The notes: generated by a model not told the origin, from the letters alone. Shown: positions 1,823-27,487, counted from the first letter of the stretch. The stretch is DNA of 32,000 nucleotides from Candidatus Saccharimonadota bacterium (GCA_002421785.1 DIRZ01000003.1:250700-282699), one strand, 5' to 3'. Translations and numbers: made by a program.

Positions 1823-1851
1823 AAATAACCTCGGCACTCCCGAGGTTATTT
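1823..1851. terminator. bidirectional intrinsic terminator between convergent genes
   Basis: AAATAACCTCGG-CACTC-CCGAGGTTATTT forms a 12-bp stem with A/T-rich flanks on both strands. It lies between the RRM gene (+) and the ABC gene (-) and overlaps the last codons of the ABC gene. Confidence 0.7.
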
Positions 1852-3663
1852 AATTTGGCTTTCAAACATGCGGTAAAACGCGCCGCGCCTGGCAATAAGC
1901 TCCTGTGCAGTCCCCTGTTCAATCAGCTCCCCATCCTGCAGCATGTAGACGACATCGGCTTTTTCTACAGTTGTTAATCGGTGACTAATCGTAATAATTG
2001 TTTTGTCCTGCATCGCAAATAAATGCTTAAAAATTCGGCTTTCTGCCAGCGCGTCAATTGCACTTGTCGGTTCATCAAGAATGATAATCGGTGCATCCCT
2101 GTAGAAATTTCGCGCCAAAGCCACTCGTTGCCATTGCCCGCCAGACAAATCTTGGCCCTTGTTTCCCTTATCATCTTCCATCCACTGATCAACATAATTT
2201 GCGAGCCCGCGCGGCAATTTGTGCAAAAACCCGGCTTCCGCAGTCGTAATAGCGCGCGCTAACCTGGCCTCATCTTCAGGCTGAGAGGTGTCGCCATAAG
2301 TAATATTGTGTCGCGCGTCAGCAAAGTCATAACGCACGAATTCTTGGCCCAACACGCCCAGCAGGCGATGCCACGAAGCAATATCGAACGCACGCAGGGG
2401 TTGATCGTCCAACATAATAGACCCCGTCGTCGGCTGGTATAGCCCCGTAATGATTTTAACGAGTGTAGATTTGCCCGCGCCGTTTTCACCAACGATCGCA
2501 ATATGTTGCCCACGCTCGATTGAGAGGGAAATATTACGCAACACCCGCTGCTCCTGCTGGGGATAGCGGAAGGAAACATCGTCAACTCGCACTACCTGGG
2601 GCACCGATGCAATCTCGCCACCACTTGATTCTGCCTCAGGCAATTCCATGAACACTTGATAGTCAAATAAGTTCGCTATGTCTTCGTCGAGCGAGCTGAT
2701 TGCTCCGACTAGACTTGAAGCACCCCCTAACGCTCGACTCACCACCTGCTGAACGTAAATGAACTGGCCGATAGGCTGCTGGCGCGCAATAATCTGCAGC
2801 GTTACCCACAGCAACGCTACTACTTCTGCACCCGCTTCAAGCACGTCAGTCCCCAGTCGCTTCCAAATATAGCTTCGCTCAAACTCGATACGAGCTTTTT
2901 CGTCTTTGTCACGCATCACCAGGCGCAAATCGAGCAGATGTCGCACGAGCCCGTATAGTCGCAGCTCTGCAATCTTGTCAGGCTGCATAATCCCCCATTC
3001 AATCCAGTTCACCACACGGCGCGCCTCGATGTTATTATTCCAGTGTTTGGTTTGTAGACGGCTGAGCTTCAACTGAATGGCAAGTCCAGGAATAATCGCA
3101 ACGAGTGCAATCAGCGAAAGCCAACCGCTTACAAGCGCGAGCGCAACGATTCCCGCAAACATAGATATAACAGCGGTGACAAGACTACTAAGTCGCTCGA
3201 ATATATAGGGAAAGAACTGACCAAATTTACGCGCTTTATCGTACAAATCAACCGTTGTCTTGTCGTCATACCGCCAAAAGTCGAGACGCAAAAAATGCTC
3301 ATACATTCGATCGGTCATCGCAGCTTCAATCCTGTAGCGCATGGCCTGCGATAAATAATTTTCCAGGCTTCGCCATGCTGTCATAGCAACACCCAACACC
3401 GCCGTAATAACTACATAGGTAATGGCCTGACGCCCAGCGTCGGGCTGGCCCGCGTAGGCGTCTGCCAGCGACGTAGTTGTTGCGGCGGCGAAATAGGTTG
3501 TGACGAGTGGCAAGATTGCGCTCACGAGCGAACCAAATACTTGCACGATCACCGCCAATGGCGCGGCACGATATGTCGTGGCGCCCACACGGAGTAGCGC
3601 GGATAAGTACTGACGCGTCGTCAGCTTAGCTTTATCGTTATTCGAACGACGTCGTCGTGGCAT
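1846..3663 (-). CDS. ABC transporter, fused permease/ATP-binding protein (MsbA-like exporter half-transporter)
   Basis: 605 aa. The N-terminal half is a multi-TM domain. The C-terminal NBD has Walker A GENGAGKST, signature LSGGQWQR and Walker B IIILDEPTSAID. Confidence 0.9.
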   Translation of the reverse strand: MPRRRRSNNDKAKLTTRQYLSALLRVGATTYRAAPLAVIVQVFGSLVSAILPLVTTYFAAATTTSLADAYAGQPDAGRQAITYVVITAVLGVAMTAWRSLENYLSQAMRYRIEAAMTDRMYEHFLRLDFWRYDDKTTVDLYDKARKFGQFFPYIFERLSSLVTAVISMFAGIVALALVSGWLSLIALVAIIPGLAIQLKLSRLQTKHWNNNIEARRVVNWIEWGIMQPDKIAELRLYGLVRHLLDLRLVMRDKDEKARIEFERSYIWKRLGTDVLEAGAEVVALLWVTLQIIARQQPIGQFIYVQQVVSRALGGASSLVGAISSLDEDIANLFDYQVFMELPEAESSGGEIASVPQVVRVDDVSFRYPQQEQRVLRNISLSIERGQHIAIVGENGAGKSTLVKIITGLYQPTTGSIMLDDQPLRAFDIASWHRLLGVLGQEFVRYDFADARHNITYGDTSQPEDEARLARAITTAEAGFLHKLPRGLANYVDQWMEDDKGNKGQDLSGGQWQRVALARNFYRDAPIIILDEPTSAIDALAESRIFKHLFAMQDKTIITISHRLTTVEKADVVYMLQDGELIEQGTAQELIARRGAFYRMFESQIK

Positions 3664-3676
3664 ATATATTATTCTA

Positions 3677-4036
3677 TCATTTTACAAACGGCGAATTGAG
3701 CCAATCCCAGCCTAGGTTGAACCATGCGCTCATAATGCCATAGCCGTTGACTAACCACACGGTTACGACGACCGTCATTGCCGTGAGGAGCCAAAAAATC
3801 GCCTTGATGTACATAGGCTGGGCACGAAGCCATTTTTGCCACGCATGGTAACGACTATGTGTATAGTCATGGACATCACTCGCCCACTGAAACTCACGGG
3901 CTAATATCGACAACCCGATAAACACCACCACCCAACCAGGTCCAGGATATGGTATCATGACCGCGCCAAGGAGTAATACTGACCAGCCGACAAATGCGAC
4001 AAGCGCTTTACGTGTTTTACCCGCTAATCTTGCCAT
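3677..4036 (-). CDS. PGPGW-domain small membrane protein
   Basis: Start moved to the ATG at 4036 (MARLAGKTRK...), since the track start at 4048 is TTG. The signature IPYPGPGWVVVFIGLSILAREFQWA matches the PGPGW transmembrane family, recalled from memory. Confidence 0.65.
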   Translation of the reverse strand: MARLAGKTRKALVAFVGWSVLLLGAVMIPYPGPGWVVVFIGLSILAREFQWASDVHDYTHSRYHAWQKWLRAQPMYIKAIFWLLTAMTVVVTVWLVNGYGIMSAWFNLGWDWLNSPFVK

Positions 4037-4295
4037 ATATCCCCGCAATCTTCTGCTGCAATGAGCTTAGGGCTGGTTGGCTGTAGTAGCTGGGCAGCAC
4101 CTCGCCAGCTAGAATAATAGCTAATAAAACCGCAAACCCGCACATTATTGACGGGATACCAGCGAGCGTCGCCGGATTAATCAGGTTTACGGCAGTAGTC
4201 GGCACAATAAATGCCAGCGCAATTTCGACACCGAACGTTGCTATCATCACCGGTGGAGAAAAACAGCTCAGACGATTCACCTTCATATATCTCAT
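4017..4295 (-). CDS. hypothetical small membrane protein
   Basis: Hydrophobic ORF with possible ATGs at 4295 and 4286. It overlaps the downstream gene by about 20 nt. No recognisable motif, so this is a weak call. Confidence 0.35.
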   Translation of the reverse strand: MRYMKVNRLSCFSPPVMIATFGVEIALAFIVPTTAVNLINPATLAGIPSIMCGFAVLLAIILAGEVLPSYYSQPALSSLQQKIAGIYGKISG

Positions 4296-4338
4296 ACCCT
4301 TGATTATACGCACTTCGGTACCGTTCGGAGATATTTTG

Positions 4339-4378
4339 TTAGTGTAGTATTGACACTTTCTATTCTATGGTTCATACT
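4339..4378 (+). promoter_or_regulatory. nadE promoter overlapped by a candidate NrtR operator
   Basis: -35 TTGACA (4350-4355), 17-nt spacer, -10 CATACT (4373-4378). The 21-bp box TTAGTGT-AGTATTG-ACACTTT (4339-4359) covers the -35 element. Confidence 0.5.
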
Positions 4379-4424
4379 CGCAAGTGAAAAGGCTCAGCCC
4401 TTTGCCATTAACCAAGGAGGATAT

Positions 4425-5237
4425 ATGCGCAAACAACAGCACGACATCATTACAGAACTCGGCAGCCAGCCAACAATCGACCCCGCCTATGAAATAGCGC
4501 GCAGAACTGAGTTTCTCGCAAGCTACTTGGCGAACACTGGCTTAAAAGGCTACATACTGGGCATATCAGGCGGGCAAGACTCGTTACTGGCCGGCATCCT
4601 CGCAAAGCGTGCAGTGGAGCAACGGCGCGAACTTGGCGATGACGCAACATTCCATGCCGTGCTCCTGCCCTATGGCGAACAGGCAGACCGTGCCGATGCG
4701 CTCCTCGCCCTCGAGACCATCCAGCCAGACGTTACCCACGACATCAACATCAAACCTGCGACCGATGCATTCGTGGAGTCATTCAACAGCTTAGGCGACC
4801 GTCCGCTCACCGATTTCAACAAAGGTAATGTAAAAGCACGCATGCGGATGATTGCTCAGTACGCGCTCGCTGGCCAACATAAACTGCTCGTGCTCGGCAC
4901 CGATCACGCAGCCGAAGCGGTGACTGGCTTCTTCACGAAATTTGGTGACGGAGGAGCTGACGTCCTGCCGCTCTCCGGTCTTACGAAGCGGCAAGGCCGA
5001 CAAATGCTCGCACAGCTCGGTGTGCCCGAAGTGTTTATTCGTAAGCAGCCAACAGCCGATTTACTCGACGCTCGTCCTGGTCAGCCGGATGAAACCGAAC
5101 TTGCGCTAAGCTACGAAACCATCGACGATTACCTAGAAGGACGGTCTGTCGATGAGCGCGCGGCAGAACAAATCGAACAACGCTTTGCAGCCACTATCCA
5201 TAAGCGCAGTCTTCCCGTGGCTGCGCCTAGCCTGTAA
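4425..5237 (+). CDS. nadE: NH3-dependent NAD+ synthetase
   Basis: Start set to the ATG at 4425, preceded by AAGGAGG; the track start at 4350 is a TTG inside the promoter. The PP-loop motif GISGGQDS is present, and the ~270-aa length is typical of single-domain NadE. Confidence 0.9.
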   Translation: MRKQQHDIITELGSQPTIDPAYEIARRTEFLASYLANTGLKGYILGISGGQDSLLAGILAKRAVEQRRELGDDATFHAVLLPYGEQADRADALLALETIQPDVTHDINIKPATDAFVESFNSLGDRPLTDFNKGNVKARMRMIAQYALAGQHKLLVLGTDHAAEAVTGFFTKFGDGGADVLPLSGLTKRQGRQMLAQLGVPEVFIRKQPTADLLDARPGQPDETELALSYETIDDYLEGRSVDERAAEQIEQRFAATIHKRSLPVAAPSL

Positions 5238-5269
5238 ACGCTGGCTAAAACTCGCCCATTCATGTAGAC

Positions 5270-5290
5270 TTAGTGTATGAAATACAGTAC
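5270..5290 (+). promoter_or_regulatory. weaker NrtR-box-like site overlapping the nrtR start codon
   Basis: TTAGTGT-ATGAAAT-ACAGTAC. The left arm is perfect and the right arm matches 5 of 7 positions. The ATG of nrtR lies at 5277, inside the spacer. Confidence 0.3.
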
Positions 5291-5954
5291 ACCTTATGTA
5301 CCCCCTACACTAACGGTTGACGCCGTCATCTTCCAATTGAACGGCACCGAACTCGAAGTACTGCTGACACAGCGACAAGAAGAGCCGTTTAAAGGGGAGT
5401 GGGCGCTACCCGGCGGCTACAACCCATCAGGTCAAACAACCCTCGAAGCCCTGTCGGCAATTGTTCGGCGCAAAGTCGGCCTTGACCTCGATGCCCAGCT
5501 TCCCTACATTGAGCAGCTGTATACCTTTGACACCGTTGCCCGTGACCCCCGTGGCCACGCAGTCTCGGTGACCTACATGGGCTGCGGCCGAGCCATCGAA
5601 CTAAGTGGTGGTAGCCAAAATGCAGAATTCTTCCCCGTCGACCGACTGCCTGGCCTGGCATACGACCATGAAAAGATTATCGAATATGCACGGGACCGCC
5701 TAGGCGCAAAGCTTACCTACACCAATGCCGTTTCTGGCCTACTGGAATCTAAATTTACTCTTAGCCAGCTACAGACCGCCTACGAAGCCGTCATGGGACG
5801 CGAAATCGATAAACGAAACTTCCGTAAAAAATTCCTGAGCCTTGGGCTCATTCACGAAACGCCAGACATGTGGCGCGAAGGCGCTCACCGCCCCGCTAAG
5901 CTCTACGCCTTCAACAACGAATCACTCGAAGTGCTCGCTCGTAGCTTCGAATAA
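5277..5954 (+). CDS. nrtR: NrtR-family Nudix-related transcriptional regulator (N-terminal Nudix-like domain + C-terminal winged helix)
   Basis: The Nudix-like N-domain contains GEWALPGG and a degenerate Nudix box. The C-terminal ~80 aa (FTLSQLQTAYEAVMGREIDKRNFRKKFLSLGLI) is the characteristic NrtR wHTH. It sits in an NAD gene cluster. Confidence 0.8.
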   Translation: MKYSTPYVPPTLTVDAVIFQLNGTELEVLLTQRQEEPFKGEWALPGGYNPSGQTTLEALSAIVRRKVGLDLDAQLPYIEQLYTFDTVARDPRGHAVSVTYMGCGRAIELSGGSQNAEFFPVDRLPGLAYDHEKIIEYARDRLGAKLTYTNAVSGLLESKFTLSQLQTAYEAVMGREIDKRNFRKKFLSLGLIHETPDMWREGAHRPAKLYAFNNESLEVLARSFE

Positions 5955-5958
5955 GCTC

Positions 5959-7512
5959 CTACGCGTCGTACGGTGTACGCTTTTGAGCCACAAGAAGTGT
6001 ATTTGTCGTGGGCTGCGGTAATTCGTTTAGCGATCCATCAACGCGCTCATACACACGACCTGCCGGTACGAACCGGTTGTCAATCAACCAAGGATTAGTG
6101 ATCCGACGTGAAGCGGCTGTCATAACAAAGCCTGCAGCTTCCAGCACCTCACACCACTCTTCGTGAGAGTAAAAGCAGAATTTTTCATGCATCTCACTCC
6201 GCCAGCTCGTCAAATAATCTTTTTTGGCCAAAAATTCACACAAGTCACCGTGCGACATCACTGCATACTCAGTGCCATCAACATACTCACGACGCACTAC
6301 AATACCATCACCTTCGTCCTGACGAAAATCACGCTCAAACCGACGAAGCCTCGCAGCAGTCGAGAGCGTCCCCAAAAAGCCAGCCAGTTCATCGCCCTCA
6401 AGCTCCCACTGCAGATCATCAGGATTTTCGCCATCATCACTTGTAGGCGCGAAGTATACTTCCTTTGTCCGATCATCTGGCCCGACCACATCGTAATTAA
6501 TGTAGACGCCTCCCGGGGCAAGCATATCGTGAGCGCGCGCAATAAACTGATGCAGTGCGTCGTGCCCCAGGTATGACTCCACTTCATGCGTCAACGCCAT
6601 CGTGATAACCGTCGTAAGAGACGCTGGCTTAAATAACTCACTCTGCATAATATTACGTTGGTAAAAATACACATTCGTGTCGCCAAATTCTCCGTTTGTC
6701 TTGCGCTGCTGGCAAATCTCGTAGAGTGGCCGTGCTGCTTCGACCCCATAGAAATCTGATTCGAATAACTCCGGGCGCTCGCCGAGCAACTTGATAGTCT
6801 GCCCAGTCGCACATCCCACATCAAGTATTTTGCCTGGCAGCACATAGTCAGCGAAGTCGTTCACTTTGCGCCACGCATTATCTTCGAATGCCGCACGGTA
6901 TGATGTATAGTCACGGGAAAGCGTAATATCACCGTCGTCCGACCCAATAAGGGGATCAGCGTAGATTGTTTGCACTAGCTCTGCCACAGCATATCGCTCG
7001 TAAAGCGTTTTGCACACTGGGTGCATCGCTTCGGTAATTGTCGGGTCAGCACTCCACTCAGGGCCACGCGCGATAATACGCCTCACGACATCCCAGGGCA
7101 TCTCGGCCCGAGATTCCTGCTCGACGGTCGCGATACCAAAGCCAAGGGATTCGTACTGCGCGATGACCGCATCAGTCGAGCATGCAACGATAGTGTTGTC
7201 TGGCCGCATATCCACGCGACCACTCGTCTGTGTGCGAATTTCTTCGATGAGGTAATGCGCAAAGTTGGAACGGTATCGTACGTTGCTAATCAGATACACT
7301 TGGCTCGGCAACTGCTCTACGGCTGCGACAGCTTCAATCATACCGAGTCGTCGCGCGCCTGCAATAGGGTTACGCTGCGTACCAGTATGATCTGCCGACG
7401 TCACAGCCCAAACGACCTCGGCATCTGGGTATTGCGCCAATAGGTTCTTCAGGTAGGCCGCCTGAAAACGCGTCACAAGGTGGTGCCGACCCGGTATCAG
7501 CACGTATTTCAC
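5959..7512 (-). CDS. fusion protein: archaeal-NMNAT (NadM)-like nucleotidyltransferase-fold domain + class I SAM-dependent methyltransferase
   Basis: GTG start overlapping the upstream stop (GTGA). The N-terminus MKYVLIPGRHHLVTRFQ...VWAVTSADHTGTQRNPIAGARRLGMI aligns by eye with archaeal NMNAT (GRFQPFHKGH...IGSAQ.SHT..NPFTAGER). The canonical H-x-G-H motif is not present. The C-terminal half has SAM motif I, ILDVGCATGQT. Confidence 0.75.
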   Translation of the reverse strand: MKYVLIPGRHHLVTRFQAAYLKNLLAQYPDAEVVWAVTSADHTGTQRNPIAGARRLGMIEAVAAVEQLPSQVYLISNVRYRSNFAHYLIEEIRTQTSGRVDMRPDNTIVACSTDAVIAQYESLGFGIATVEQESRAEMPWDVVRRIIARGPEWSADPTITEAMHPVCKTLYERYAVAELVQTIYADPLIGSDDGDITLSRDYTSYRAAFEDNAWRKVNDFADYVLPGKILDVGCATGQTIKLLGERPELFESDFYGVEAARPLYEICQQRKTNGEFGDTNVYFYQRNIMQSELFKPASLTTVITMALTHEVESYLGHDALHQFIARAHDMLAPGGVYINYDVVGPDDRTKEVYFAPTSDDGENPDDLQWELEGDELAGFLGTLSTAARLRRFERDFRQDEGDGIVVRREYVDGTEYAVMSHGDLCEFLAKKDYLTSWRSEMHEKFCFYSHEEWCEVLEAAGFVMTAASRRITNPWLIDNRFVPAGRVYERVDGSLNELPQPTTNTLLVAQKRTPYDA

Positions 7513-8519
7513 GAATTCTGTAACGCTCTCTGCGCAAATTCGTGCGATAGACGCGTCAATCGCTCGTAATCTTGCACCTGTTCGAACCCGGTAGGGGTCA
7601 CGAATTCACCCGATGCGTGCGCATTTGCCATCGTGCCAGCAATCGAAGCGATACTGTCGGTATCACCCCCCAGGTTAACCGCGTAGTTCACCGCGGTCGT
7701 GTAATCACCTCGGGCAGCCACCAGCACATCATAGGTCATCGCTACCGTACTAGGTACAAAAAATCCATAGCGTCCATTAGCATGCCCGATGGCGTAACGG
7801 CCAACGAGCTGTGTCAGCGACGTCACAGGAAAACGCATGGCGCGCTCAATTCGACCCTTTGGATCGGCGTTCGGTTCACTCGCCAGGACATCAAGCGCTT
7901 TCGTTCGGAACGCATCTAGCGATGCATCTGGATGTTCCAGTAGCCAATGTGTCACCTCGCCGTGTAGTCGCGTACACGCGCGAGCAATCTCACTATCATG
8001 CGTCATCGTGGTTAACTCGTCATACTGCTGCCGGCGTGTGGGCTCGTCAATTTGCCGAGCGACCTGCCAATAGACGAGAGGCGCCATCTTCATCAATATA
8101 CCGTTCCCGGCACCTTCTGGTTCTCCTGATTCAAGTGGGGACATGCCCGCTGCCATACGCTCCATGCTAGCAGTCGTCGACCCTCCCCAGCCGCGTACCG
8201 ACCACTCGCCTTTGTAGTTTTTGGTCTTCGTTATCGCATGGTATGCGCTCAAATGTGCTTCGGCTTGCGCATCGATATCAAACCCATCTGCTGCCAACAG
8301 GCCTTCGGCCACCGCAACTGACAACTGCGTGTCGTCGCTCGTCGTGCCAGCAGGGAAATTACCCGGGTAGTAGGGATTGTGAAGTGGTGGAATTAAATGG
8401 TCAAGCCGGCCATACCGCCCCGCAATTTCAGATGCTGACATCGTTTCAGTGGGGAGCCCCATTGCATCGCCATACGCAATCGAGGGTAATAACCGTTCGC
8501 CAACACGTTTCATCGTCAT
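7509..8519 (-). CDS. ADP-ribosylglycohydrolase family protein (DraG/ARH-like)
   Basis: Start set to the ATG at 8519, which forms an ATGA overlap with the upstream stop. Motifs AYGDAMGLPTE, TSDDTQL and GGDTDSIASIAG are the di-metal site signatures of the ARH family. Confidence 0.85.
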   Translation of the reverse strand: MTMKRVGERLLPSIAYGDAMGLPTETMSASEIAGRYGRLDHLIPPLHNPYYPGNFPAGTTSDDTQLSVAVAEGLLAADGFDIDAQAEAHLSAYHAITKTKNYKGEWSVRGWGGSTTASMERMAAGMSPLESGEPEGAGNGILMKMAPLVYWQVARQIDEPTRRQQYDELTTMTHDSEIARACTRLHGEVTHWLLEHPDASLDAFRTKALDVLASEPNADPKGRIERAMRFPVTSLTQLVGRYAIGHANGRYGFFVPSTVAMTYDVLVAARGDYTTAVNYAVNLGGDTDSIASIAGTMANAHASGEFVTPTGFEQVQDYERLTRLSHEFAQRALQNS

Positions 8520-9337
8520 GGTTGTGTGAGTCTTTCTGCAGCACTTGCCTGCGCCAGTAGTTCTTCGCCAGTATACCTTCTTCGGGCAGAAAGCTCTACC
8601 CATTTACCCTCGAATGGTGAGCTTGCAGGGTCAAACGGATATGTATAGCGCCGCCATTGCAACTTTTCGCGCACATCATGTGGGTCATCGGGGTTAACTC
8701 TCGTATAGTGAAGAATCGTACAATTGCGCAGTGCGTAGGTATGGTCTGCGTCTATCTTCTCCCACTCTTCGGGTGTCATTCGCTCAATGCCATAGCGTGC
8801 CGCATTAATGAAGTCGCCATGTGTCACCACGCAGACACGCTTGCCGGCCTGCTCACGGTGCAATGTTCCCTGAAAATCACGAAAGCGGGCGTATACATCC
8901 GGCATACTCTCGCCACCATCAAGGCGCGTGTACCATGGATTCTGCGCCTTCTCCTGGGCCGTCATAGGGAAAAGTGCACGCTGTTCGGCGGTCGGTCGCT
9001 TTCCATACACGCCCCAACTCCGTTCAACAACCCGGTCATCAATCGTCCAGCCACCCAGTTCCGGGCCACCAAGGCAGGCAGCCGTTTCACGGGTTCGGTA
9101 AAATGGCGAAACATACAATGCGTCAAACGACGCCAGGCCCCCGACATTCTCGTCAAGCCATCGTTTAGCTGTTTCTGCTTGCGCCACACCATTCTGCGTA
9201 AGACGGTGCTGCCAATCTGGCCTGCCAAAAATTGCCTGCACCGTGTTGTCATCCAGGCCATGGTCGTCACTCTTCTGAACAGTGTTCGCTTCAGACTGGC
9301 CGTGTCTGATAAAAATTAAGTCGTTAGGCATCGCCAT
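8516..9337 (-). CDS. histidine phosphatase superfamily protein (phosphoglycerate-mutase-like, branch 1)
   Basis: The catalytic motif LIFIRHGQSEAN (RHG) is present, together with RTRETA, ERSWG and VTHGDF. An AAAGGAG RBS precedes the ATG at 9337. Confidence 0.85.
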   Translation of the reverse strand: MAMPNDLIFIRHGQSEANTVQKSDDHGLDDNTVQAIFGRPDWQHRLTQNGVAQAETAKRWLDENVGGLASFDALYVSPFYRTRETAACLGGPELGGWTIDDRVVERSWGVYGKRPTAEQRALFPMTAQEKAQNPWYTRLDGGESMPDVYARFRDFQGTLHREQAGKRVCVVTHGDFINAARYGIERMTPEEWEKIDADHTYALRNCTILHYTRVNPDDPHDVREKLQWRRYTYPFDPASSPFEGKWVELSARRRYTGEELLAQASAAERLTQP

Positions 9338-9391
9338 TTTTACATCTCCTTTTGCATGTACTACCTGTATTGTACTACATAATTCGCATAA

Positions 9392-9455
9392 ATAGTGTTG
9401 ACATTACAATAACTATTCGCTAGGATGAAGCTAGTAAGTGTATAAAGTACAATAA
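9392..9455 (+). promoter_or_regulatory. pnuC promoter with two candidate NrtR operators, in the divergent region shared with the histidine-phosphatase operon
   Basis: -35 TTGACA (9398-9403), 17-nt spacer, -10 TAGGAT (9421-9426). Box 1, ATAGTGT-TGACATT-ACAATAA (9392-9412), covers the -35 element. Box 2, TAAGTGT-ATAAAGT-ACAATAA (9435-9455), lies downstream of the -10 element. Confidence 0.5.
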
Positions 9456-9474
9456 GTACAGAAAGTGAATCATC

Positions 9475-10197
9475 ATGAAATTACAACTTAATCCTAAAGG
9501 TGCCAGCCTCACACGGCACATCACAGAAAGCATCATCATTGGTGTCGTACTGACATTCCTCTCCTATGCAGTCGGTATCTTTGCAGGCTGGCTCACCCCT
9601 GCCGGGCTTAACTGGCTTGAGGTATTCGCCGTCCTCACATCATATGCCTGTACCTATCTGTGTGTGGTTGAGCGACGCATCAACTACCCCATCGGTGCAA
9701 TCAGCTCGGCCGCCTATGCGGTGCTCTTTATGCAGAGCGGGTTGCTATCAAGCGCCATTCTGAACGCCTACTTGGCACCAACGCTCATTTACGGCTGGCT
9801 CCGTTGGCGCAAAGATGCCAATGCTCGCCCAGTTACTCACGTCGAGCTGAAGTGGCTTCCCGTGTACGTCATCGTGGCAGCCGCTGGGTATGTAGGCGCC
9901 AGCCTGATTAGCAAATCGTTTGGCGGGGCGATGGCCTGGACGGACTCGATCATATTGGCTGGGACTATCCTGGCACAGTTCTTGCTCGATAATAAAAAGC
10001 TTGAAAACTGGGCAGTGTGGGCTATGGTAAATGTCTTCGCTATCTACACCTACTGGACAATTGGCCTCCCACTTGTCGCCTTCCAGTACATCTTTTTCCT
10101 CGCAAACACCGTCTACGGCTATATCACCTGGAAGCGCAGCAAGGAGCAGGCTCATGAGACCTCAACCCTCAAAGAACCCGTCCTCACCGAAGCCTAA
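9475..10197 (+). CDS. pnuC: nicotinamide riboside transporter PnuC
   Basis: 240-aa polytopic membrane protein with W/Y-rich helices and a C-terminal motif FQYIFFLANTVYGYITW typical of PnuC. It lies directly upstream of RNK/NadR genes. Confidence 0.8.
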   Translation: MKLQLNPKGASLTRHITESIIIGVVLTFLSYAVGIFAGWLTPAGLNWLEVFAVLTSYACTYLCVVERRINYPIGAISSAAYAVLFMQSGLLSSAILNAYLAPTLIYGWLRWRKDANARPVTHVELKWLPVYVIVAAAGYVGASLISKSFGGAMAWTDSIILAGTILAQFLLDNKKLENWAVWAMVNVFAIYTYWTIGLPLVAFQYIFFLANTVYGYITWKRSKEQAHETSTLKEPVLTEA

Positions 10198-10762
10198 GTC
10201 CTTTACTATCACCATCTTTGGCGCCGAGTCGACTGGCAAAACGACACTCAGCCGTGAACTTGCGACAGTACTCGGTGCCCAGTGGCTGTACGAATTCGCC
10301 CGCCCCTACCTTGAGCTGACGAGTGCACCCATCACCCCCAGCTCGATGACGGCAATTTGGCACGGCCAGCAGGTGCTACAGACGATGCGCGAAGGCCATG
10401 TCATCGTGCAGGATACCGACCTGTTCTCAACAGTTGGATACTGGCAGTTCCCGCACTGGCACCCGGTCCTCGGCGACTGCCCCGCTGCGCTCATTCGTGA
10501 CGCCAAGCACCTTCAGTCAGACCTTTACCTTATTACGCCAAGCAACATCCCCTTCGAACATGACCCACTTCGCTACGGCGGGGATGCACGAGAAGGGACC
10601 GATGACTACTGGGTAGCGGTCTGTGAACAATATCAATTACCGTACGTCGTGCTGAACTCCAGCGACCCGTCAGCACGCGTCACCGAAGCACTCACTATTA
10701 TGCAAACAAAGGAGAATCTATGCGCGGCCTCGTCATTGGCAAATTTTACCCACCCCACCTAG
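10154..10762 (+). CDS. stand-alone NadR-C-terminal-like P-loop ATPase (putative ribosylnicotinamide kinase)
   Basis: Start set to the ATG at 10154, preceded by AAGGAG; the upstream part of the track ORF is an out-of-frame reading of pnuC. Walker A is FGAESTGKTTLSRELA and a Walker-B-like VQDTDL follows. It is a paralogue of the C-terminal domain of the next gene. Confidence 0.7.
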   Translation: MRPQPSKNPSSPKPKSFTITIFGAESTGKTTLSRELATVLGAQWLYEFARPYLELTSAPITPSSMTAIWHGQQVLQTMREGHVIVQDTDLFSTVGYWQFPHWHPVLGDCPAALIRDAKHLQSDLYLITPSNIPFEHDPLRYGGDAREGTDDYWVAVCEQYQLPYVVLNSSDPSARVTEALTIMQTKENLCAASSLANFTHPT

Positions 10763-11691
10763 GGCACAACTACCTCATCGATACAGCGCTAGCCAACAGC
10801 GACGAAGTTGACGTACTAGTCGTTGATAACCCCGCCTATCGTCTACCTGCCGCCAAGCGTGCAGCCTGGCTAAGAGCACGCCACCCAGCGGCCCATGTCA
10901 AAATCATCCCTGACATATATGATGATGCCAACTCAATCTCATGGGGCAAGCATACCATCGACTTCCTCGGGTACCGTCCGGACACCGTGTTTAGCTCTGA
11001 AGACTACGGCAAGCCGTGGGCAGATGCCATGAACTGCAAAAGCGTGCTCGTCGACCTGGATCGACTGACCTTTCCCGTGTCGGGCACCCTTGTCCGTCAG
11101 GATATGCTGAACTCGTGGCATATGCTATCTGACGAGACAAAAGCCGGCCTAGCCCTCCGCGTTGTCATCGTGGGTGCTGAATCAACTGGCACGACAACGC
11201 TTTCCCGTGACCTCGCCGCCGCGCTCCATGTGCCATGGGTCCCTGAAGTTGGTCGGTACTACACCGAATCAATTCTGACAGATGGCTACGAATGGCGTGA
11301 TGAGGACTTCTATCGAATCGGGCGATTGCAGCAACACTATGAAAACGAAATTGCCGCGCGGAGTAAGGGCGTCATCGTGTGCGACACGAATGCCGTCGCG
11401 ACAGAGCTATGGCAGCGGCGCTACATGGGCAAAACGACGTCTGAGATGCGCGAGATTGCTGCAAACGACAAAGCCGATCTGTACATCATCACCGGTGACG
11501 AGATACCCTTCGTGCAGGATGGCATCCGCGACGGCGAACACATCCGCCACCGCATGCACCGTTGGTTCCTGGCACACATTAAAAAATCCGGTATACCCTA
11601 CCTGGTAGTTACCGGTACGCCAGAGGAGCGCCTTGCCGCGGCACGCACTGCCGCCGAAGCAATGATTCGCGACAGACGCGTCATTACATAA
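10720..11691 (+). CDS. nadR: bifunctional NMN adenylyltransferase / ribosylnicotinamide kinase (NadR type, no HTH domain)
   Basis: The N-terminus GKFYPPHLGH is the nucleotidyltransferase G-x-F-x-P-x-H-x-G-H motif. The C-terminal domain has Walker A GAESTGTTTLSRDLA. An AAGGAG RBS is present, and the gene overlaps the previous gene by 43 nt. Confidence 0.85.
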   Translation: MRGLVIGKFYPPHLGHNYLIDTALANSDEVDVLVVDNPAYRLPAAKRAAWLRARHPAAHVKIIPDIYDDANSISWGKHTIDFLGYRPDTVFSSEDYGKPWADAMNCKSVLVDLDRLTFPVSGTLVRQDMLNSWHMLSDETKAGLALRVVIVGAESTGTTTLSRDLAAALHVPWVPEVGRYYTESILTDGYEWRDEDFYRIGRLQQHYENEIAARSKGVIVCDTNAVATELWQRRYMGKTTSEMREIAANDKADLYIITGDEIPFVQDGIRDGEHIRHRMHRWFLAHIKKSGIPYLVVTGTPEERLAAARTAAEAMIRDRRVIT

Positions 11692-11723
11692 TGTTGCAAT
11701 AACTACATCATTATTTTACATAG

Positions 11724-11790
11724 TTAGTGTTGACTTTACACTAACAACGCGTTACACTCAGTTTATAAGTTAGTGTATATATCACACTAA
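11724..11790 (+). promoter_or_regulatory. pncA promoter with two perfect 21-bp palindromes (candidate NrtR operators)
   Basis: Box 1 is TTAGTGT-TGACTTT-ACACTAA (11724-11744) and box 2 is TTAGTGT-ATATATC-ACACTAA (11770-11790). The -35 TTGACT (11730-11735) lies inside box 1, followed by a 17-nt spacer and -10 TACACT (11753-11758). Confidence 0.6.
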
Positions 11791-11816
11791 CAATAAGAAT
11801 AAAGGAGTTGACCACT

Positions 11817-12539
11817 ATGAATACCCTCAAAGCCCCCCAAGTATACGGCGAAGTTATGCTAGGCAACATCGATGTGCAGAACGACTTCTGCCCTGGCGGC
11901 ACACTCGCCGTTAGGGATGGAGACAAAGTCGTAGGACCACTCAATGCTGTCGGTGAATTTGTCGCCGAGCATGACGGCTTCGTCTTTAATACAGGCGACT
12001 TCCACGATCCACGCACAGCACACTTCGACACAAACGGCGGCCCATGGCCTGTCCACTGCGTAGAGTACCGCGCCGGTGCAGCTTTTCACGAAGACCTGAC
12101 TATCCGTCCTAATGATAGCGTCGCCTACAAAGGCACAAGCCTGGTTGACGACGGCTACTCTGGTGCTGAAGCGGTTATCCAGCGCGGTCGCCTCGAGTCC
12201 ATCGTGTCAAACCTCCCCGCAAGCGAACGGACGATAGGTGCTGCGATTGAGCGCATTGAGCAAGTAACTGAACAGTACAAACGACGCCTGGCGGTGTTAA
12301 TCGGCGGACTTGCGACAGACTACTGTGTGAAGGCGACCGTTCTCGACGTACTCGCCATTACAAATCGGGAAACAACCGATGTTATTGTGCTCCGTGATGC
12401 AATTCGTGCCGTCAACATCAATGAAACAGACGGTGAAGATGCAATCAACGCGATGCTTGAAGCTGGCGCACTAGCAATGACAACTGAAGAAATTCTTGCG
12501 GGCGGCATCGTTATTGATCATACACGGCTGGAGCGCTAA
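11817..12539 (+). CDS. pncA: nicotinamidase (isochorismatase family)
   Basis: Start at the ATG at 11817, 9 nt after AAAGGAG. Motifs DVQNDFCPGGTLAV and the catalytic-Cys motif LATDYCVKAT are present. Confidence 0.85.
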   Translation: MNTLKAPQVYGEVMLGNIDVQNDFCPGGTLAVRDGDKVVGPLNAVGEFVAEHDGFVFNTGDFHDPRTAHFDTNGGPWPVHCVEYRAGAAFHEDLTIRPNDSVAYKGTSLVDDGYSGAEAVIQRGRLESIVSNLPASERTIGAAIERIEQVTEQYKRRLAVLIGGLATDYCVKATVLDVLAITNRETTDVIVLRDAIRAVNINETDGEDAINAMLEAGALAMTTEEILAGGIVIDHTRLER

Positions 12540-12549
12540 GGTGAGCGCT

Positions 12550-13851
12550 ATGAACAAACGCGAGACACCTTCCCTTTCCCAAGGCCTCGACTATTACAAA
12601 GCCACAATGGGGCAGGTTGAATTCGATAAACACCCCGACACAATCGTTACCTTTGAGCTAAAGAATCGTGGAGCCAACAAGCTATCGACCTACGTGACTC
12701 CTGAGCAGTTATCGGCACGACTAGCCGAGCTCCAGGACGGATGGAGCCCAGAAGAAGTTGCCTACCTGGCTGGCCTCACCAACCAAGACGGTGGTGCTCG
12801 CTTCACCCCAGAGTATCTCGACTTCCTCGCGGACAATCCACTTCCCCCCGTGCAGGTCGGCTATGATGAACACCATGAGCTTACCGTCAAAACGACTGGT
12901 GCGTGGCCGCTCGTGACCTTTTGGGAAACAGTCGTGATGAGCGAGCTTAATGAGCTCTACTTCGCTGGCAAATTAGCCGCAGAAGGCAGCTCACTCGATG
13001 AACTTTATGCCGAAGGCGAACGGCGTCTTGATAGCAAGATCGCCACGCTCCGCGACCGACCTGATATTAAATTTTCAGACTTCGGTACACGCCGACGCTT
13101 CAGCTACGACTGGCAGAAGCACGTTATCGAACGTGTCGCCCAGGAGCTACCTAGCCAATTCCTTGGTACCTCAAACATTTTCCTGGCGCATGAGCTCAAC
13201 CTGAAACCAATCGGCACCTACGCACACGAGATGCCCATGGTATACGGCGCCATCGAACAAATGAATGGCAACGACCCGCTCGACGGTCATCACAAAATGC
13301 TCCGCGACTGGGAAACGACCCACCGTGGCGACCTTGCAACTGCGTTGACCGATACCTGGACAACTGACTACTTCTTCACCGACTTCACCCCAGAACAAGC
13401 CGAAGCTTGGGGCGGCCTACGACACGATTCTGGTGACCCATTTGAATTCGGCGAACGTGTTATTACGTTTTACCAGCAATACAATATCGATCCACGCGCC
13501 CACACCATTGTCTACAGTGACGGCCTCGACATCGACATGATTGTCGCCCTGGCAGACCGCTTTAGGGGCCGCGTCAATCTCGTGTTTGGCTGGGGCACTA
13601 CGCTCACCAACGACCTGGGGGTTAAAGCGAACAACTTCGTCATGAAAGCCACTACAGTTGCAGAAGCCTCCCTGCCGCAGTACGAGCAAGGTACCGTCAA
13701 GCTGAGTGACGCCGAAGGCAAGCACATGGGCAGCCCTGAAGATGTCGAACTCTATGGACAACGCGTCAAACGTGCTGTCGCCATGGGCGCTCGAGCCTAC
13801 CAGTTGAGTGTCGCGAATAACGCACATGAAAAACAGCTGGTGGCTGTATGA
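12550..13851 (+). CDS. pncB: nicotinate phosphoribosyltransferase
   Basis: Start at the ATG at 12550, after AAGGTGA. Motifs YYKATMGQ, DFGTRRRFS, GTYAHEMPM, SDGLD and FGWGTTLTND are typical of PncB. Confidence 0.85.
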   Translation: MNKRETPSLSQGLDYYKATMGQVEFDKHPDTIVTFELKNRGANKLSTYVTPEQLSARLAELQDGWSPEEVAYLAGLTNQDGGARFTPEYLDFLADNPLPPVQVGYDEHHELTVKTTGAWPLVTFWETVVMSELNELYFAGKLAAEGSSLDELYAEGERRLDSKIATLRDRPDIKFSDFGTRRRFSYDWQKHVIERVAQELPSQFLGTSNIFLAHELNLKPIGTYAHEMPMVYGAIEQMNGNDPLDGHHKMLRDWETTHRGDLATALTDTWTTDYFFTDFTPEQAEAWGGLRHDSGDPFEFGERVITFYQQYNIDPRAHTIVYSDGLDIDMIVALADRFRGRVNLVFGWGTTLTNDLGVKANNFVMKATTVAEASLPQYEQGTVKLSDAEGKHMGSPEDVELYGQRVKRAVAMGARAYQLSVANNAHEKQLVAV

Positions 13852-15329
13852 AGTGTCCCGAACTTCGCGCAAACACAGCGAACGTCGAACTACCAACTCA
13901 TGAGGAGCAAGAGGGCTTTCTTGCCCTTGGCCTTACTACTGATAACAATGGACGCCCTTTGCACCCATGGCGCTACGATATCCCCGACCTGCCCTCCACC
14001 AAAGGCGATTTATGGAAATGGGGACCAAATTATACTGTAGACCCCATCGTTCTGTCCCAGGACAACGACGGTCCAGTAATACTGCTTATCCAGCGAGGCG
14101 ACTGCGGACAATGGGCGCTACCTGGCGGCTTTGTCGATAGTGGCGAAAACCCCCTCGAAGCAGCGCGCCGCGAGCTCCGCGAAGAAACCAGTTTGGAGAT
14201 CACGGACGGTGAGTCGACGGCACATGTTTGCTATCAAGGGCCAGTCCACGACAGACGAAGCACCATGTACGCATGGCCAGAAACGACATCGATCTTGATG
14301 CATGTCCCTACCGCGCCCGTTGCCGCTGGGGATGATGCCATGACCGCCCAATGGGTGCCCCTAAAAGACGTCCGCCTACTGCCGGGCCTTTATGGGTCAC
14401 ATGGTACACTAATTGATATGGCAATTCGAGACAGCGGTACATTTCATGAGCAACTCGAATACTTTAGTAACCAAGTTGAGTTTAGCCAACCTACTGGTGG
14501 GCACATGGGCTACACTCGGCACATCGCATCACTACCCACAGGCAGGCGCGTATTCATTAAGCGGCACGACGCCGACAAGTTCACCGATGAGACGCGCGCT
14601 CAACATTCAAAACGCTATCTACACAAGGAGCATCACGTCTACCAGCAGCTATCAGACACATCCCCTCATACTCCTGACCACATTGAATTGACTAATGACA
14701 GTACTCTGCTGCTCGAAGCATACGACCCACGTGATGGATGGCAGTGGAAAGCACCACTGGACATTACTGAGCGTAGACGATATATCCATGAAGTAATCGA
14801 GGCTCTGCGCACCATTGAACCTGCGAGGTATGAGCCATTTGTTGACGTAAAACCGTCATATCATACGATTATCGATGAGGGTTGGGGCGCCTACCCTACA
14901 GCCCGCACACGCATTATCGAAAAGCTGCACAGATCCTCAGTCGAAGGAGCCCGGGCACTTGCCGATAGCCTGGATGAGCTATACGAACGTACTCAGCATC
15001 TCCCGTCACCAGAGCTTACCCACTTCGCTCATTATGACGTCCGCCAATCAAACATCGCCTGGCATCCCGAGCATGGCGTACGCATTGTTGATTGGAGTTG
15101 GGCGGATCCCGCCCCTAAAGGCGTAGATACCACGAGCTTTCTGATTGACATACATAAAGCCGGATATTCTATCGATGAGCATATGCCGGATTTTAATGCC
15201 GAACACGCACTGATACTTATAGGATTCTGGCTAGGCCACAGCATATGGCCGACACCAACACACGATCAAACCGTTCGCGAGCATCAAATCAGTTCAGCGG
15301 TTGCCGCTTTTCAGCTACTTAACCAGTAG
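13848..15329 (+). CDS. fusion protein: NUDT9-like Nudix (ADP-ribose pyrophosphatase-like) + protein-kinase-like/APH-fold phosphotransferase
   Basis: ATGA overlap with the pncB stop. The N-terminal half has KWGPNYTVDPIVL (NUDT9-type upstream motif, from memory) and the Nudix box GGFVDSGENPLEAARRELREETSL. The C-terminal half has FIKRHD (putative beta3 Lys), catalytic loop HYDVRQSNIAW (H-x-D-x4-N) and metal-binding IVDWSWA. Confidence 0.8.
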   Translation: MKCPELRANTANVELPTHEEQEGFLALGLTTDNNGRPLHPWRYDIPDLPSTKGDLWKWGPNYTVDPIVLSQDNDGPVILLIQRGDCGQWALPGGFVDSGENPLEAARRELREETSLEITDGESTAHVCYQGPVHDRRSTMYAWPETTSILMHVPTAPVAAGDDAMTAQWVPLKDVRLLPGLYGSHGTLIDMAIRDSGTFHEQLEYFSNQVEFSQPTGGHMGYTRHIASLPTGRRVFIKRHDADKFTDETRAQHSKRYLHKEHHVYQQLSDTSPHTPDHIELTNDSTLLLEAYDPRDGWQWKAPLDITERRRYIHEVIEALRTIEPARYEPFVDVKPSYHTIIDEGWGAYPTARTRIIEKLHRSSVEGARALADSLDELYERTQHLPSPELTHFAHYDVRQSNIAWHPEHGVRIVDWSWADPAPKGVDTTSFLIDIHKAGYSIDEHMPDFNAEHALILIGFWLGHSIWPTPTHDQTVREHQISSAVAAFQLLNQ

Positions 15330-15342
15330 TAGCGGCTGAGGC

Positions 15343-25820: not shown

Positions 25821-26381
25821 CTAAAAAACGAGGTCGACCGGATCGGCAATCGAGAAGGCATCCGCATACACCCATTCGTATCGCTCAAGACATTGTGTCA
25901 CGATGTGGGTATATATCTCATATACATCCTCGAGCGCCGTGCCGCTCGCAACTTCACATTGCAATTCAGGAAGCGTCAGCCAACGAATGTCGTCCGCCTC
26001 GCCCTCTGCCTGAGCCCGGGCTGGAATCGCTCGCGCAATAAATGCATAGCATAAATCTGAATGGTAATGCTCAGCATTCACTCGGTGCGTATTTACAAGT
26101 AGGGGCACCGGGTGTATGACAGCATGCTCAAGAGTCGGCAACTGCTTCGTCGGCTGCAGCACGCTCAACTCATTCAGTTGATACCCTGTTTCCTCTGCCA
26201 ACTCATGTGCCAAGGCTGCCCAAGGTGTTTCGGCGAGCTCAATGTGACCTCCAGCCTGCATGAGCTTTCCAAGTTTGCGATGCATGTGCACTAGAACGAG
26301 CGGCTCATCATCCTGCATACGCACAATGTACGCGCTTACAGTAATGTCATGTTGGCCATCGAGTGTGTGGATATGCGGCAT
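25821..26381 (-). CDS. Nudix hydrolase (stand-alone)
   Basis: Nudix box GGHIELAETPWAALAHELAEETGY. Substrate unknown. Confidence 0.75.
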   Translation of the reverse strand: MPHIHTLDGQHDITVSAYIVRMQDDEPLVLVHMHRKLGKLMQAGGHIELAETPWAALAHELAEETGYQLNELSVLQPTKQLPTLEHAVIHPVPLLVNTHRVNAEHYHSDLCYAFIARAIPARAQAEGEADDIRWLTLPELQCEVASGTALEDVYEIYTHIVTQCLERYEWVYADAFSIADPVDLVF

Positions 26382-27305: not shown

Positions 27306-27487
27306 ATATCCATTGTACCGCAATACTACCCCTGTTGTAAACGCAAGTGCTCATACACGTTGCATCATCTTGGTGTATTTAGTATACTTATAACACTATG
27401 AACTTGCGCTAGTTCCTCTACTCGTGAATGTTGGGACGGCCTAACCACTTGCGATACAAACAACTAAGAGAAAGGTTTTATTAACAC

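Follow-up and report, generated by a model that had tools for sequence, protein, structure and literature searches.

The question raised by the locus treated here is whether three adjoining genes, encoding a histidine phosphatase (HisP), an ADP-ribosylglycohydrolase of the ARH/ARG family (ARH) and a protein in which a NadM-like domain is fused to an S-adenosylmethionine (SAM)-dependent methyltransferase (hereafter the fusion), serve one pathway or are held together more loosely. They lie at positions 5959-9337 of a 32,000 nt stretch from a Candidatus Saccharimonadota bacterium (GCA_002421785.1, DIRZ01000003.1:250700-282699), referred to in its full length as the window, and a preliminary description had proposed them as an undescribed module for processing ADP-ribose (ADPR) or NAD derivatives. 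The analysis presented here points to a looser arrangement: the three genes probably make up an accessory transcription unit, repressed by NrtR, within the NAD-salvage island of Saccharibacteria, and their products are separable enzymes with a common regulator and biochemical theme but no fixed pathway.

Alignment of the regions upstream of the unit's first gene in 17 loci yielded a conserved 21-bp palindrome, TTAGTGT-N7-ACACTAA, which contains the GT-N7-AC core known from NrtR sites (PMC2330246). Nine matches to it are found in the window, where 1.02 would be expected, and none of 100 shuffled sequences reached this number. At least one such box is present within 200 nt upstream of the unit in all 34 island loci (background 0.043 per 200 nt), with two boxes approximately 44 nt apart in 33 of them, and this conservation does not depend on whether HisP, ARH or the fusion leads the unit. 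Within the window, the pair occupies the region between hisP and its divergent neighbour pnuC, with the first operator overlapping the putative -35 elements of both promoters. Because of these conserved upstream boxes, the unit is assigned, on sequence evidence, to the NrtR regulon; a search for riboswitches across positions 3500-16000 returned no Rfam match at E ≤ 1. The NAD/ADP-ribose theme of the preliminary description is thereby upheld, by the regulon and its conserved operators as well as by the neighbouring pnuC, nadR, pncA, pncB and nadE. The biochemical roles suggested there, namely recycling of phospho-ADPR, reversal of foreign ADP-ribosylation and synthesis of a methylated pyridine nucleotide, are conceivable.

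The architecture of the unit is likewise as first described. All three open reading frames (ORFs) were recovered, together with the ATGA overlap of hisP and ARH (8519-8516, context caaccATGAcg), the GTGA overlap of ARH and the fusion gene (7512-7509, context ttcGTGAaa) and the 4-bp gap between the convergent stop codons of nrtR (TAA, 5952-5954) and the fusion gene (cta, i.e. TAG, 5959-5961), in which a consensus scan detected no terminator-like site. The start codons agree with the lengths of homologues (P0001, 517 aa and 100 % identical; P0241, 336 aa; P0121, 273 aa), which lend no support to a longer ARH ORF beginning at 8603, and Candidatus Saccharibacteria bacterium 32-50-10 has a protein with 100 % identity to the fusion. 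The base composition of the region is unremarkable, and a tblastn comparison of the fusion with plasmids and phages, made with regard to a mobile or phage origin, gave no matches. The 4-nt overlaps suggest co-transcription and, possibly, translational coupling. A minus-strand hairpin followed by a T-run is located at 5836-5850, inside the nrtR coding region and approximately 110 nt beyond the fusion stop, and could be the end of the hisP-ARH-fusion transcript; terminator-like sites in the region number seven against 4.9 expected, which is near chance level.

With regard to the conservation of the trio, three sets of loci, cited below by L numbers, were compared: a survey centred on the fusion (37 loci from GTDB species representatives, with 17 informative Saccharibacteria and 17 non-Saccharibacteria), one centred on ARH (49 metagenome loci), and three look-ups centred on HisP (L042, L101 and L102). 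HisP is found directly upstream of the fusion in 12 of the 17 informative Saccharibacteria species loci. ARH separates the two in L014 and L030, follows the fusion in L036 and, in L009, is found beside nrtR at a distance of 7 kb, and the fusion occurs with neither partner in L001, L013, L015 and L019. Outside the Saccharibacteria, neither HisP nor ARH is found within 8 kb of the fusion at any of the 17 loci. Approximately 29 of the 49 ARH loci fall within a NAD island; HisP is present in 17 of these, the fusion in 10 and the complete trio in 8. Pairs of HisP and ARH without the fusion are present in L054, L077, L081, L084 and L088, with the order ARH-HisP in L061 and L075, and L049 also holds a pair lacking the fusion; in all three HisP-centred look-ups, HisP stands alone between pncA and nrtR. 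The complete trio is nevertheless not peculiar to this genome, as it occurs in at least 13 other loci (L009, L014, L030, L036, L045/46, L053, L069-71, L073, L074, L086 and L096), and none of its proteins has a close characterised orthologue. The single module originally envisaged is, in this respect, only partly sustained: the trio recurs, but it is not obligate, with members occurring singly or in pairs and in varying order. The three genes are thus read as independent members of one regulon, with HisP as the basal, most conserved island member, and ARH and the fusion as frequent add-ons. Linkage of the fusion to nrtR extends over three phyla, being convergent or adjacent in Saccharibacteria, whereas in Ruaniaceae, Timonella and Populibacterium nrtR directly precedes the fusion and in Spongiivirga it directly follows it. 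Coordinates of the unit, its operators and the surrounding island are collected in the table.

Table. Position of the hisP-ARH-fusion unit, putative NrtR sites and neighbouring genes in the window
Feature	Position	Strand	Length	Remarks
hisP	8516-9337	-	273 aa	Histidine-phosphatase superfamily branch 1; first gene of the operon; CobC-like, under all equivalog cut-offs
ARH/ARG-family ADP-ribosylglycohydrolase	7509-8519	-	336 aa	Full set of metal-binding motifs; variable island member
NadM-like/SAM-methyltransferase fusion	5959-7512	-	517 aa	
Fusion, N-terminal domain	6943-7512	-	aa 1-190	NadM/archaeal-NMNAT fold
Fusion, linker, methyltransferase and stop	5959-6942	-	aa 191-210 and ~211-517	Conserved linker DDGDIT..RDY..YR (aa 191-210); class-I SAM methyltransferase with C-terminal lid (aa ~211-517)
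Putative NrtR operator 1	9392-9412			ATAGTGTTGACATTACAATAA on + strand; ~55-75 nt upstream of hisP ATG
Putative NrtR operator 2	9435-9455			43 nt from operator 1; pnuC-proximal
nrtR	5277-5954	+		Nudix-wHTH (winged helix-turn-helix) ADP-ribose-responsive repressor; NF050029 3e-37, PF21906 4.5e-24; convergent with the fusion gene
Candidate NrtR box	4339-4359			Upstream of nadE
Candidate NrtR boxes	5270-5313			At the start of nrtR itself
NrtR boxes	11724-11790			Two perfect sites upstream of pncA
NrtR-like boxes	27370-27399			Two overlapping; upstream of MsbA-like ABC exporter ORF 27488-29263 (+)
nadE	about 4425-5237	+		Homologues 270 aa
pnuC	9475-10197	+		Divergent from hisP
RNK-like gene	about 10200-10762	+		Mechanical ORF 10031-10762
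nadR-like, NMNAT+RNK	10720-11691	+		
pncA	11808-12539	+		
pncB	12496-13851	+		
Nudix + APH-like kinase	13848-15329	+	493 aa	

The three domain assignments of the preliminary description all held. HisP matches PF00300 (3e-29, 102 bits) and retains its catalytic residues within the motifs FIRHGQSE, SPFYRTRET, VERSWG and VVTHGD, corresponding to the RHG signature, SPxxRTxxT, the glutamate acid and the second His-Gly; across Saccharibacteria it is 63-87 % identical. The best family match is CobC (TIGR03162, 5e-20), whose cut-off of 162.9 is far from reached by the score of 71.6 bits, with all other equivalogs scoring lower, and the best PDB match is a phosphoserine phosphatase (2e-5); no characterised orthologue of HisP was found. 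CobC is an alpha-ribazole-5'-phosphate phosphatase, dephosphorylating an N-ribosyl-base 5'-phosphate. HisP would, by analogy, be a phosphomonoesterase like CobC, with a ribosyl-phosphate from the pyridine-nucleotide cycle as its substrate. More specifically, the best guess, offered tentatively, is that it is a 5'-phosphatase of nicotinamide or nicotinic acid mononucleotide (NMN or NaMN) which clears the NMN produced by the neighbouring NAD-dependent ligase; this is favoured because HisP is a constant partner of pncA-pncB-Nudix/kinase by ligA and resembles an N-ribosyl-base 5'-phosphatase. A phosphatase of NADP or 2'-phospho-ADPR is the alternative, and an unlikely one.

ARH matches PF03747 (1e-45, 156.7 bits against a cut-off of 26.2) with intact GDAxGxPxE, TSDDT, GNG and GGDTDS motifs, which align with those of Lmo0067 (8za7) and the Thermus thermophilus ARH (2cwc); the di-metal-binding motifs are invariant in 20 homologues. 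It is not an equivalog of DraG (TIGR02662, 51 against a cut-off of 337) or of Tri1 (NF041672, 40 against 490). With its active site intact, the protein would be expected, as a member of its family, to cleave ADP-ribose from ADP-ribosylated acceptors or O-acyl-ADPR. It is 42-78 % identical across the phylum, is variably present, and shifts its position within the island. Coupling of ARH to a phosphatase recurs with different partners, namely HisP, an IMPase following ARH in L051, and a Nudix-GpmA protein in L047. In this last case, which represents one Saccharibacteria lineage, a fusion of Nudix with a genuine GpmA-type phosphoglycerate mutase precedes ARH with an 8-nt overlap (L047/L048, 7821-10041, and 13 near-identical metagenome loci: L055, L056, L058, L060, L062, L063, L065-L068, L085, L090 and L091); the pair lies outside the NAD island, beside RNase Y. 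The L047 protein had been considered as proof that HisP works with Nudix, a proposal weakened by the finding that its His_Phos domain is GpmA (TIGR01258, 177 bits), 32 % identical to HisP.

ARH and HisP might alternatively provide immunity to, or repair after, foreign ADP-ribosyltransferase (ART) toxins delivered by the actinobacterial host, by competitors or by phages, with NAD salvage merely refilling the pool. Systems comprising an ARG, a phosphatase and a Nudix-helix-turn-helix (HTH) regulator without a cognate ART have been predicted for such a role, and a component that varies and moves, as ARH does within the island, is a hallmark of conflict systems by the same account (PMC9503650). 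ARH is, in addition, weakly similar to the Tri1 immunity hydrolase (NF041672, 1.6e-10), and neither an ART gene nor any ART or sirtuin domain was seen among the window ORFs scanned. On the other hand, PADLOC returned one generic methyltransferase match in its defence annotation and none for ARH or HisP, the regulator is that of housekeeping NAD metabolism, its boxes being found at nadE, pncA and pnuC, HisP can be present where ARH is not and is the better conserved of the two, and the chaperone and nuclease accessories of ARG-centric systems are absent. Such a role is possible, albeit rather doubtful.

The third protein is the least conventional of the unit in that its N-terminal domain departs from the family it resembles. 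Its AlphaFold model has a pLDDT of 91.9 (89.5 for the N-terminal domain alone), and a Foldseek comparison of the predicted N-terminal domain with the PDB placed NMNATs from Mth and Mj, and NadM, in the top 19 positions (E 3e-8 to 5e-5), followed by PPAT and NadD; TMt reaches 0.82, with 1ej2 (root-mean-square deviation 2.8 Å), and the NadM structure 2qjo is also amongst the 19. A profile match to 1f9a (MJ0541 NMNAT) was obtained at E=1.1e-4, with family-level scores that are weak (NF002243, 1.4e-3 at aa 18-155, 18.3 bits against a cut-off of 127; TIGR01527, 15.9 against 181). Residues kept in this domain are G8-R9 and the loop T38-S39-..H42..T45.R47-N48-P49....R55 (SAxxSHTxxNP....R), which are invariant even in members only 35 % identical. 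The HxGH motif, by contrast, is lost: GRMQPFHRGH of 1ej2 aligns with GRHHLVTRFQ (TxFQ), and the residues found in its place, T14-x-x-Q17, are invariant at T14 and Q17 in sets of 74 and 18 sequences. The C-terminal SxTxxR (ISST-type) motif, which opens the last core helix, is seemingly replaced as well, SGTEIR of MJ0541 standing opposite P139-W140-D-V-V-R/E in an hhalign comparison of low confidence, for which the MJ0541 sequence used was verified over residues 14-118 only. A global hhalign alignment that shifted the N-terminal motif so as to match RFQ tripeptides was dropped, the ungapped HMMER alignment being preferred because it is consistent with where strands and helices begin and end in the model. 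The label 'NadM-like' hence stands as regards fold and falls as regards the catalytic motifs (TxFQ, PWD).

The C-terminal half is covered by PF13489 and PF13649 at aa 216-345, with PF13489, PF13649 and PF08241 all exceeding their cut-offs. Motif I (DVGCATG) is present, the acidic residue at the end of strand 2 (E258) is conserved, and many lysine, arginine, histidine and glutamate residues are invariant. This half gave 779 PDB fold matches at E ≤ 1e-3, the listed top 50 of which are mostly proteins of the class-I methyltransferase fold, and it resembles small-molecule methyltransferases such as Rv2258c, RebM/AtmM and phosphoethanolamine N-methyltransferase (PMT).

One might suppose that the fusion is a genuine NMN/NaMN adenylyltransferase for NAD synthesis, being a NadM in which Nudix has been swapped for a methyltransferase and the catalytic motif takes the variant form GRHH..T..Q. 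The NadM/NMNAT fold accords with this, the invariance of the pocket residues over members 35 % identical argues for an active site over a decayed domain, and in Spongiivirga the gene stands by nrtR-prs-nadV in the usual place of nadM. Opposed to it are the invariant glutamine in place of the second histidine of (H/T)xGH and PWD in place of SxT; the equivalent His-to-Ala change in Escherichia coli NadD (H19A) leaves 0.62 % of activity (PMC1249556). The strongly conserved methyltransferase half would, furthermore, be left without a role. Were the fusion the missing NMNAT of the island, NadD and NadR should be absent, an expectation rejected by the presence of canonical-motif NadD or NadR in at least seven fusion-bearing islands (L001, L010, L024, L034, L036, L045 and the window). 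With NadD or NadR encoded nearby in these islands, no NMNAT need be supplied by the fusion, and it is probably not that of the cell; adenylyltransferase activity of this kind is unlikely.

Most likely, the fusion is a nucleotide-binding methyltransferase, in which the NadM scaffold would be repurposed as a nucleotide-binding, or variant catalytic, domain presenting a ligand to the methyltransferase. That the ligand bound in the NadM-derived pocket is a pyridine mono- or dinucleotide, or of the ADPR type, and is methylated there by the C-terminal domain at the expense of SAM is put forward tentatively, as something short of probable. A fuller proposal, and a more doubtful one, is that the fusion methylates NMN, NaMN, NAD or ADPR species in the remodelled pocket to give a methylated pyridine nucleotide or ADPR derivative undescribed in bacteria, induced by ADPR via NrtR, with HisP trimming a phosphate from substrate or product, and the gene having moved between Saccharibacteria and the actinobacterial host phylum.

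A phmmer search of the N-terminal domain against 1.84 billion representatives yielded, at E ≤ 1e-3, 162 clusters formed at 50 % identity, the majority with 480-560 aa and hence of fusion length, and the domain is here tentatively taken as a separate small clade beside NadM. The family is distributed amongst Saccharibacteria, Komeilibacteria, Bacteroidota (Spongiivirga, Sporocytophaga), Leptospira and Actinobacteria (Tessaracoccus, Arachnia, Salana, Ruaniaceae, Timonella, Populibacterium and Jonesiaceae), its members being annotated only as hypothetical protein, transferase or methyltransferase. Literature searches returned nothing relevant on a characterised NadM-methyltransferase fusion, or on a histidine phosphatase in the NrtR regulon. 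In a neighbour-joining tree calculated without bootstrap values, the actinobacterial fusions (L005, L007, L008, L012, L020, L022, L023, L025 and L027) form one clade nested in the Saccharibacteria diversity, 57-62 % identical to the window protein. This topology suggests transfer of the gene between the epibiont phylum and the host phylum. In Arachnia and Salana, the fusion gene adjoins transposases.

The tightest conceivable organisation would be one obligatory, stoichiometric pathway, in which a single ADP-ribose or NAD derivative passes through hydrolysis, dephosphorylation and adenylylation or methylation. The 4-nt overlaps in the window and in L045, and the co-occurrence of the trio at the 13 or more loci listed above, speak for such a pathway. 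Stoichiometric co-expression, as read from these overlaps by the preliminary description, must however be given up, since an overlap says nothing on stoichiometry, and the overlaps are not kept in relatives: L014 has gaps of approximately 130 and 190 nt among the three genes, and L045 retains just that of ARH and the fusion. Gene order also switches, from HisP-ARH-fusion (L053) to HisP-fusion-ARH (L069-71, L073, L074 and L086), and the fusion lacks both partners within 8 kb in 17 of 17 non-Saccharibacteria loci. Because each gene occurs without the others, no single obligatory pathway is apparent, and this organisation is to be considered quite improbable.

A phospho-base pathway, in which a cytidylyltransferase-like and phosphoethanolamine-N-methyltransferase-like fusion would make CDP-choline-type compounds with HisP as phospho-base phosphatase and the NAD context coincidental, can be dismissed as barely credible: the methyltransferase half has phosphoethanolamine N-methyltransferases among its closest structural counterparts, NMNATs and cytidylyltransferases belong to one superfamily, and Leptospira and several actinobacterial loci have no NAD context, but the top 19 matches of the N-terminal domain are NMNAT or NadM, with no choline or glycerol-phosphate cytidylyltransferase in the top 50, and it is further opposed by the adjacency of the fusion to nrtR in three phyla and by the NrtR boxes of all 34 Saccharibacteria loci.

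An accessory unit of three separable enzymes under NrtR would operate as follows. Consumption of NAD would cause ADP-ribose to build up, upon which NrtR would leave the two operators between hisP and pnuC, so that hisP-ARH-fusion would be expressed along with pnuC-nadR-pncA-pncB-Nudix/kinase. ARH would release ADP-ribose from acceptors, forming with the phosphatase and NrtR an ARG-centric module with a histidine phosphatase; HisP would remove phosphate from a ribosyl-phosphate of the pyridine-nucleotide cycle; and the fusion would act as a self-contained enzyme which, its adenylyl-transfer motifs gone and its nucleotide pocket kept, could methylate the bound ligand with SAM.

A number of points weigh against this account. 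NrtR binding and the ADPR-dependent derepression of the unit are both drawn from known NrtR biology, and the substrates of all three proteins are predicted from sequence. A search of the regions preceding the fusion in Actinobacteria, Bacteroidota and Leptospira gave no convincing site of the Saccharibacteria type, the sole weak palindrome among non-Saccharibacteria being that of Tessaracoccus rhinocerotis, at -99. No NAD-related neighbours of the fusion are present in Tessaracoccus, Arachnia, Salana or Leptospira. Spongiivirga citrea (L028, 7983-13155) has the order fusion - nrtR - prs-like - nucleoside 2-deoxyribosyltransferase (NDT)-like (PF15891) - nadV, the fusion sitting where nadM usually does in prs-nadV clusters. 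The invariant R9, H10, H42 and R47 could form an alternative nucleotidyl-transfer site, and for that reason loss of HxGH is no proof of lost activity. Finally, the coupling seen in L047 is weak evidence, because its His_Phos domain is of the true GpmA type and not a HisP orthologue.

The island into which the unit is set recurs in the same order across Saccharibacteria, the divergent salvage genes from pnuC to the Nudix/kinase together spanning 9475-15329 (+) in the window, with ligA, encoding the NAD-dependent ligase, convergent at the island end. Two gene starts require comment. The mechanical nadE ORF begins at TTG 4350, within an NrtR box, and the homologues of 270 aa indicate ATG 4425 as the true start; the RNK-like gene probably starts near 10200, right after the pnuC stop. 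The Nudix/kinase protein combines a NadM-type (ADPR-pyrophosphatase-like) Nudix domain with an APH/thiamine-kinase-like C-terminus, in which the catalytic loop HxDxxxxN is visible, and follows pncB in nearly all Saccharibacteria NAD islands (PF00293+PF01636 in L049, L101 and L102); it may link ADPR breakdown to the supply of ribose-phosphate or phosphoribosyl pyrophosphate for PncB. Two further products encoded near the island, a winged-HTH + Nudix protein with domains in the reverse order of NrtR (29338-30045, +) and a small stand-alone Nudix protein (25821-26381, -), are extra sensors or hydrolases of the Nudix type. A paralogous ABC exporter flanks the NAD island in the window (1846-3663, -) and in L003, L042, L045 and L094, and such an exporter is possibly a further NrtR target. 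Two other elements are present in related islands and not in the window. One is an additional CobC-like histidine phosphatase, shorter at 209-213 aa, whose gene separates nrtR from nadE in many islands (L045, 12246-12887; L051, 2640-3269; L069-71, L082-84 and L096-99). The other is a block of approximately 5 kb, encoding a PP2C phosphatase and two large proteins (~620 and ~350 aa) without Pfam domains, which forms an insertion separating nrtR from the fusion or ARH in several islands (L003, 9643-14383; L004, L010, L024, L030, L049, L078 and L080).

Saccharibacteria are ultra-small epibionts unable to make most cofactors, and the upkeep of NAD is consequently central to their dependence on a host. 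Against this background, the analysis defines the Saccharibacteria NrtR operator and regulon by sequence, and identifies a CobC-like phosphatase as a core member of the salvage island. It also delimits a small, widely transferred family in which an NMNAT scaffold minus the adenylyl-transfer motifs is joined to a methyltransferase, and which is a candidate for a new NAD/ADP-ribose reaction. Should the fusion indeed make a methylated pyridine nucleotide, a prospect we hold to be possible rather than probable, this would be a notable addition to NAD biochemistry; were it instead a variant NMNAT, the residues required by that fold would be redefined.

Comparison with known systems places the unit between several described ones. 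HisP shares the catalytic core of CobC (TIGR03162) and the branch-1 histidine phosphatases PhoE, PspA and dPGM (RHG, Arg, Glu, His-Gly), but differs from CobC in a 70-aa C-terminal extension and in a context of NAD salvage rather than cobamide synthesis. The fusion shares with NadM (PDB 2qjo, 2qjt; NMN adenylyltransferase/ADP-ribose pyrophosphatase) and archaeal NMNAT (1f9a, 1ej2) the N-terminal fold, the GR after strand 1 and the S-x-x-x-H/S-T-x-x-NP-x-x-x-x-R loop, and like NadM it is a two-domain protein of NrtR-linked NAD clusters. Unlike NadM, it has TxFQ for HxGH, PWDxx for SxTxxR and a SAM methyltransferase with a lid instead of Nudix, and it co-exists with canonical NMNATs.

The regulon itself corresponds to that described by Rodionov et al. 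(2008) in its Nudix-wHTH repressor, its 21-bp palindrome and its operators upstream of pncA-pncB, nadE, pnuC-nadR and nrtR (PMC2330246). That survey did not extend to Saccharibacteria, which belong to the Candidate Phyla Radiation (CPR), and its text does not include the histidine phosphatase, the NadM-like/methyltransferase fusion or the Nudix/APH-kinase fusion; it does give Streptomyces nrtR1-draG-SCO1765 as an NrtR-controlled 'ADPR' unit. Its targets nrtX and nrtY, names found in no later paper, have no established match to the families described here.

The closest relation of ARH and HisP is to the 'ARG-centric' systems predicted by Iyer, Burroughs, Anantharaman and Aravind (2022), in which an ARH without a cognate transferase is accompanied by a phosphatase in >55 % of neighbourhoods and by a Nudix-HTH or WYL regulator in >42 %, and which are proposed to strip foreign ADP-ribosylation and process the released ADPR (PMC9503650, section 3.8). 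The claim that the combination is undescribed does not, in view of these two studies, wholly stand, an ARH in the NrtR regulon having been reported in 2008 and ARH with phosphatase and Nudix-HTH predicted in 2022. The core of such a system, itself a prediction, is present here: ARH without a linked ART or sirtuin, an overlapping phosphatase gene, an adjacent Nudix-HTH nrtR, and a phosphatase that is replaceable (HisP, IMPase or Nudix-GpmA). Differences lie in the accessories, the Pfam scans of the window revealing none of vWA, SseB, TY-Chap, REase or ARPP, so that chaperone, REase, Macro, NADAR and ARPP partners are all wanting, and in the rapid sequence evolution of ARG-centric systems, which is not matched by ARH. 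The module, moreover, is part of a housekeeping regulon for NAD salvage instead of standing by itself as a conflict island. The phosphatases given for ARG-centric systems are rhodanese-phosphatase, calcineurin-like, HD and HAD (PMC9503650), whereas that encoded here is drawn from the histidine-phosphatase superfamily. The pairing of ARH with HisP is thus an extension of the predicted ARH-phosphatase-NrtR module to another phosphatase family and to another phylum.

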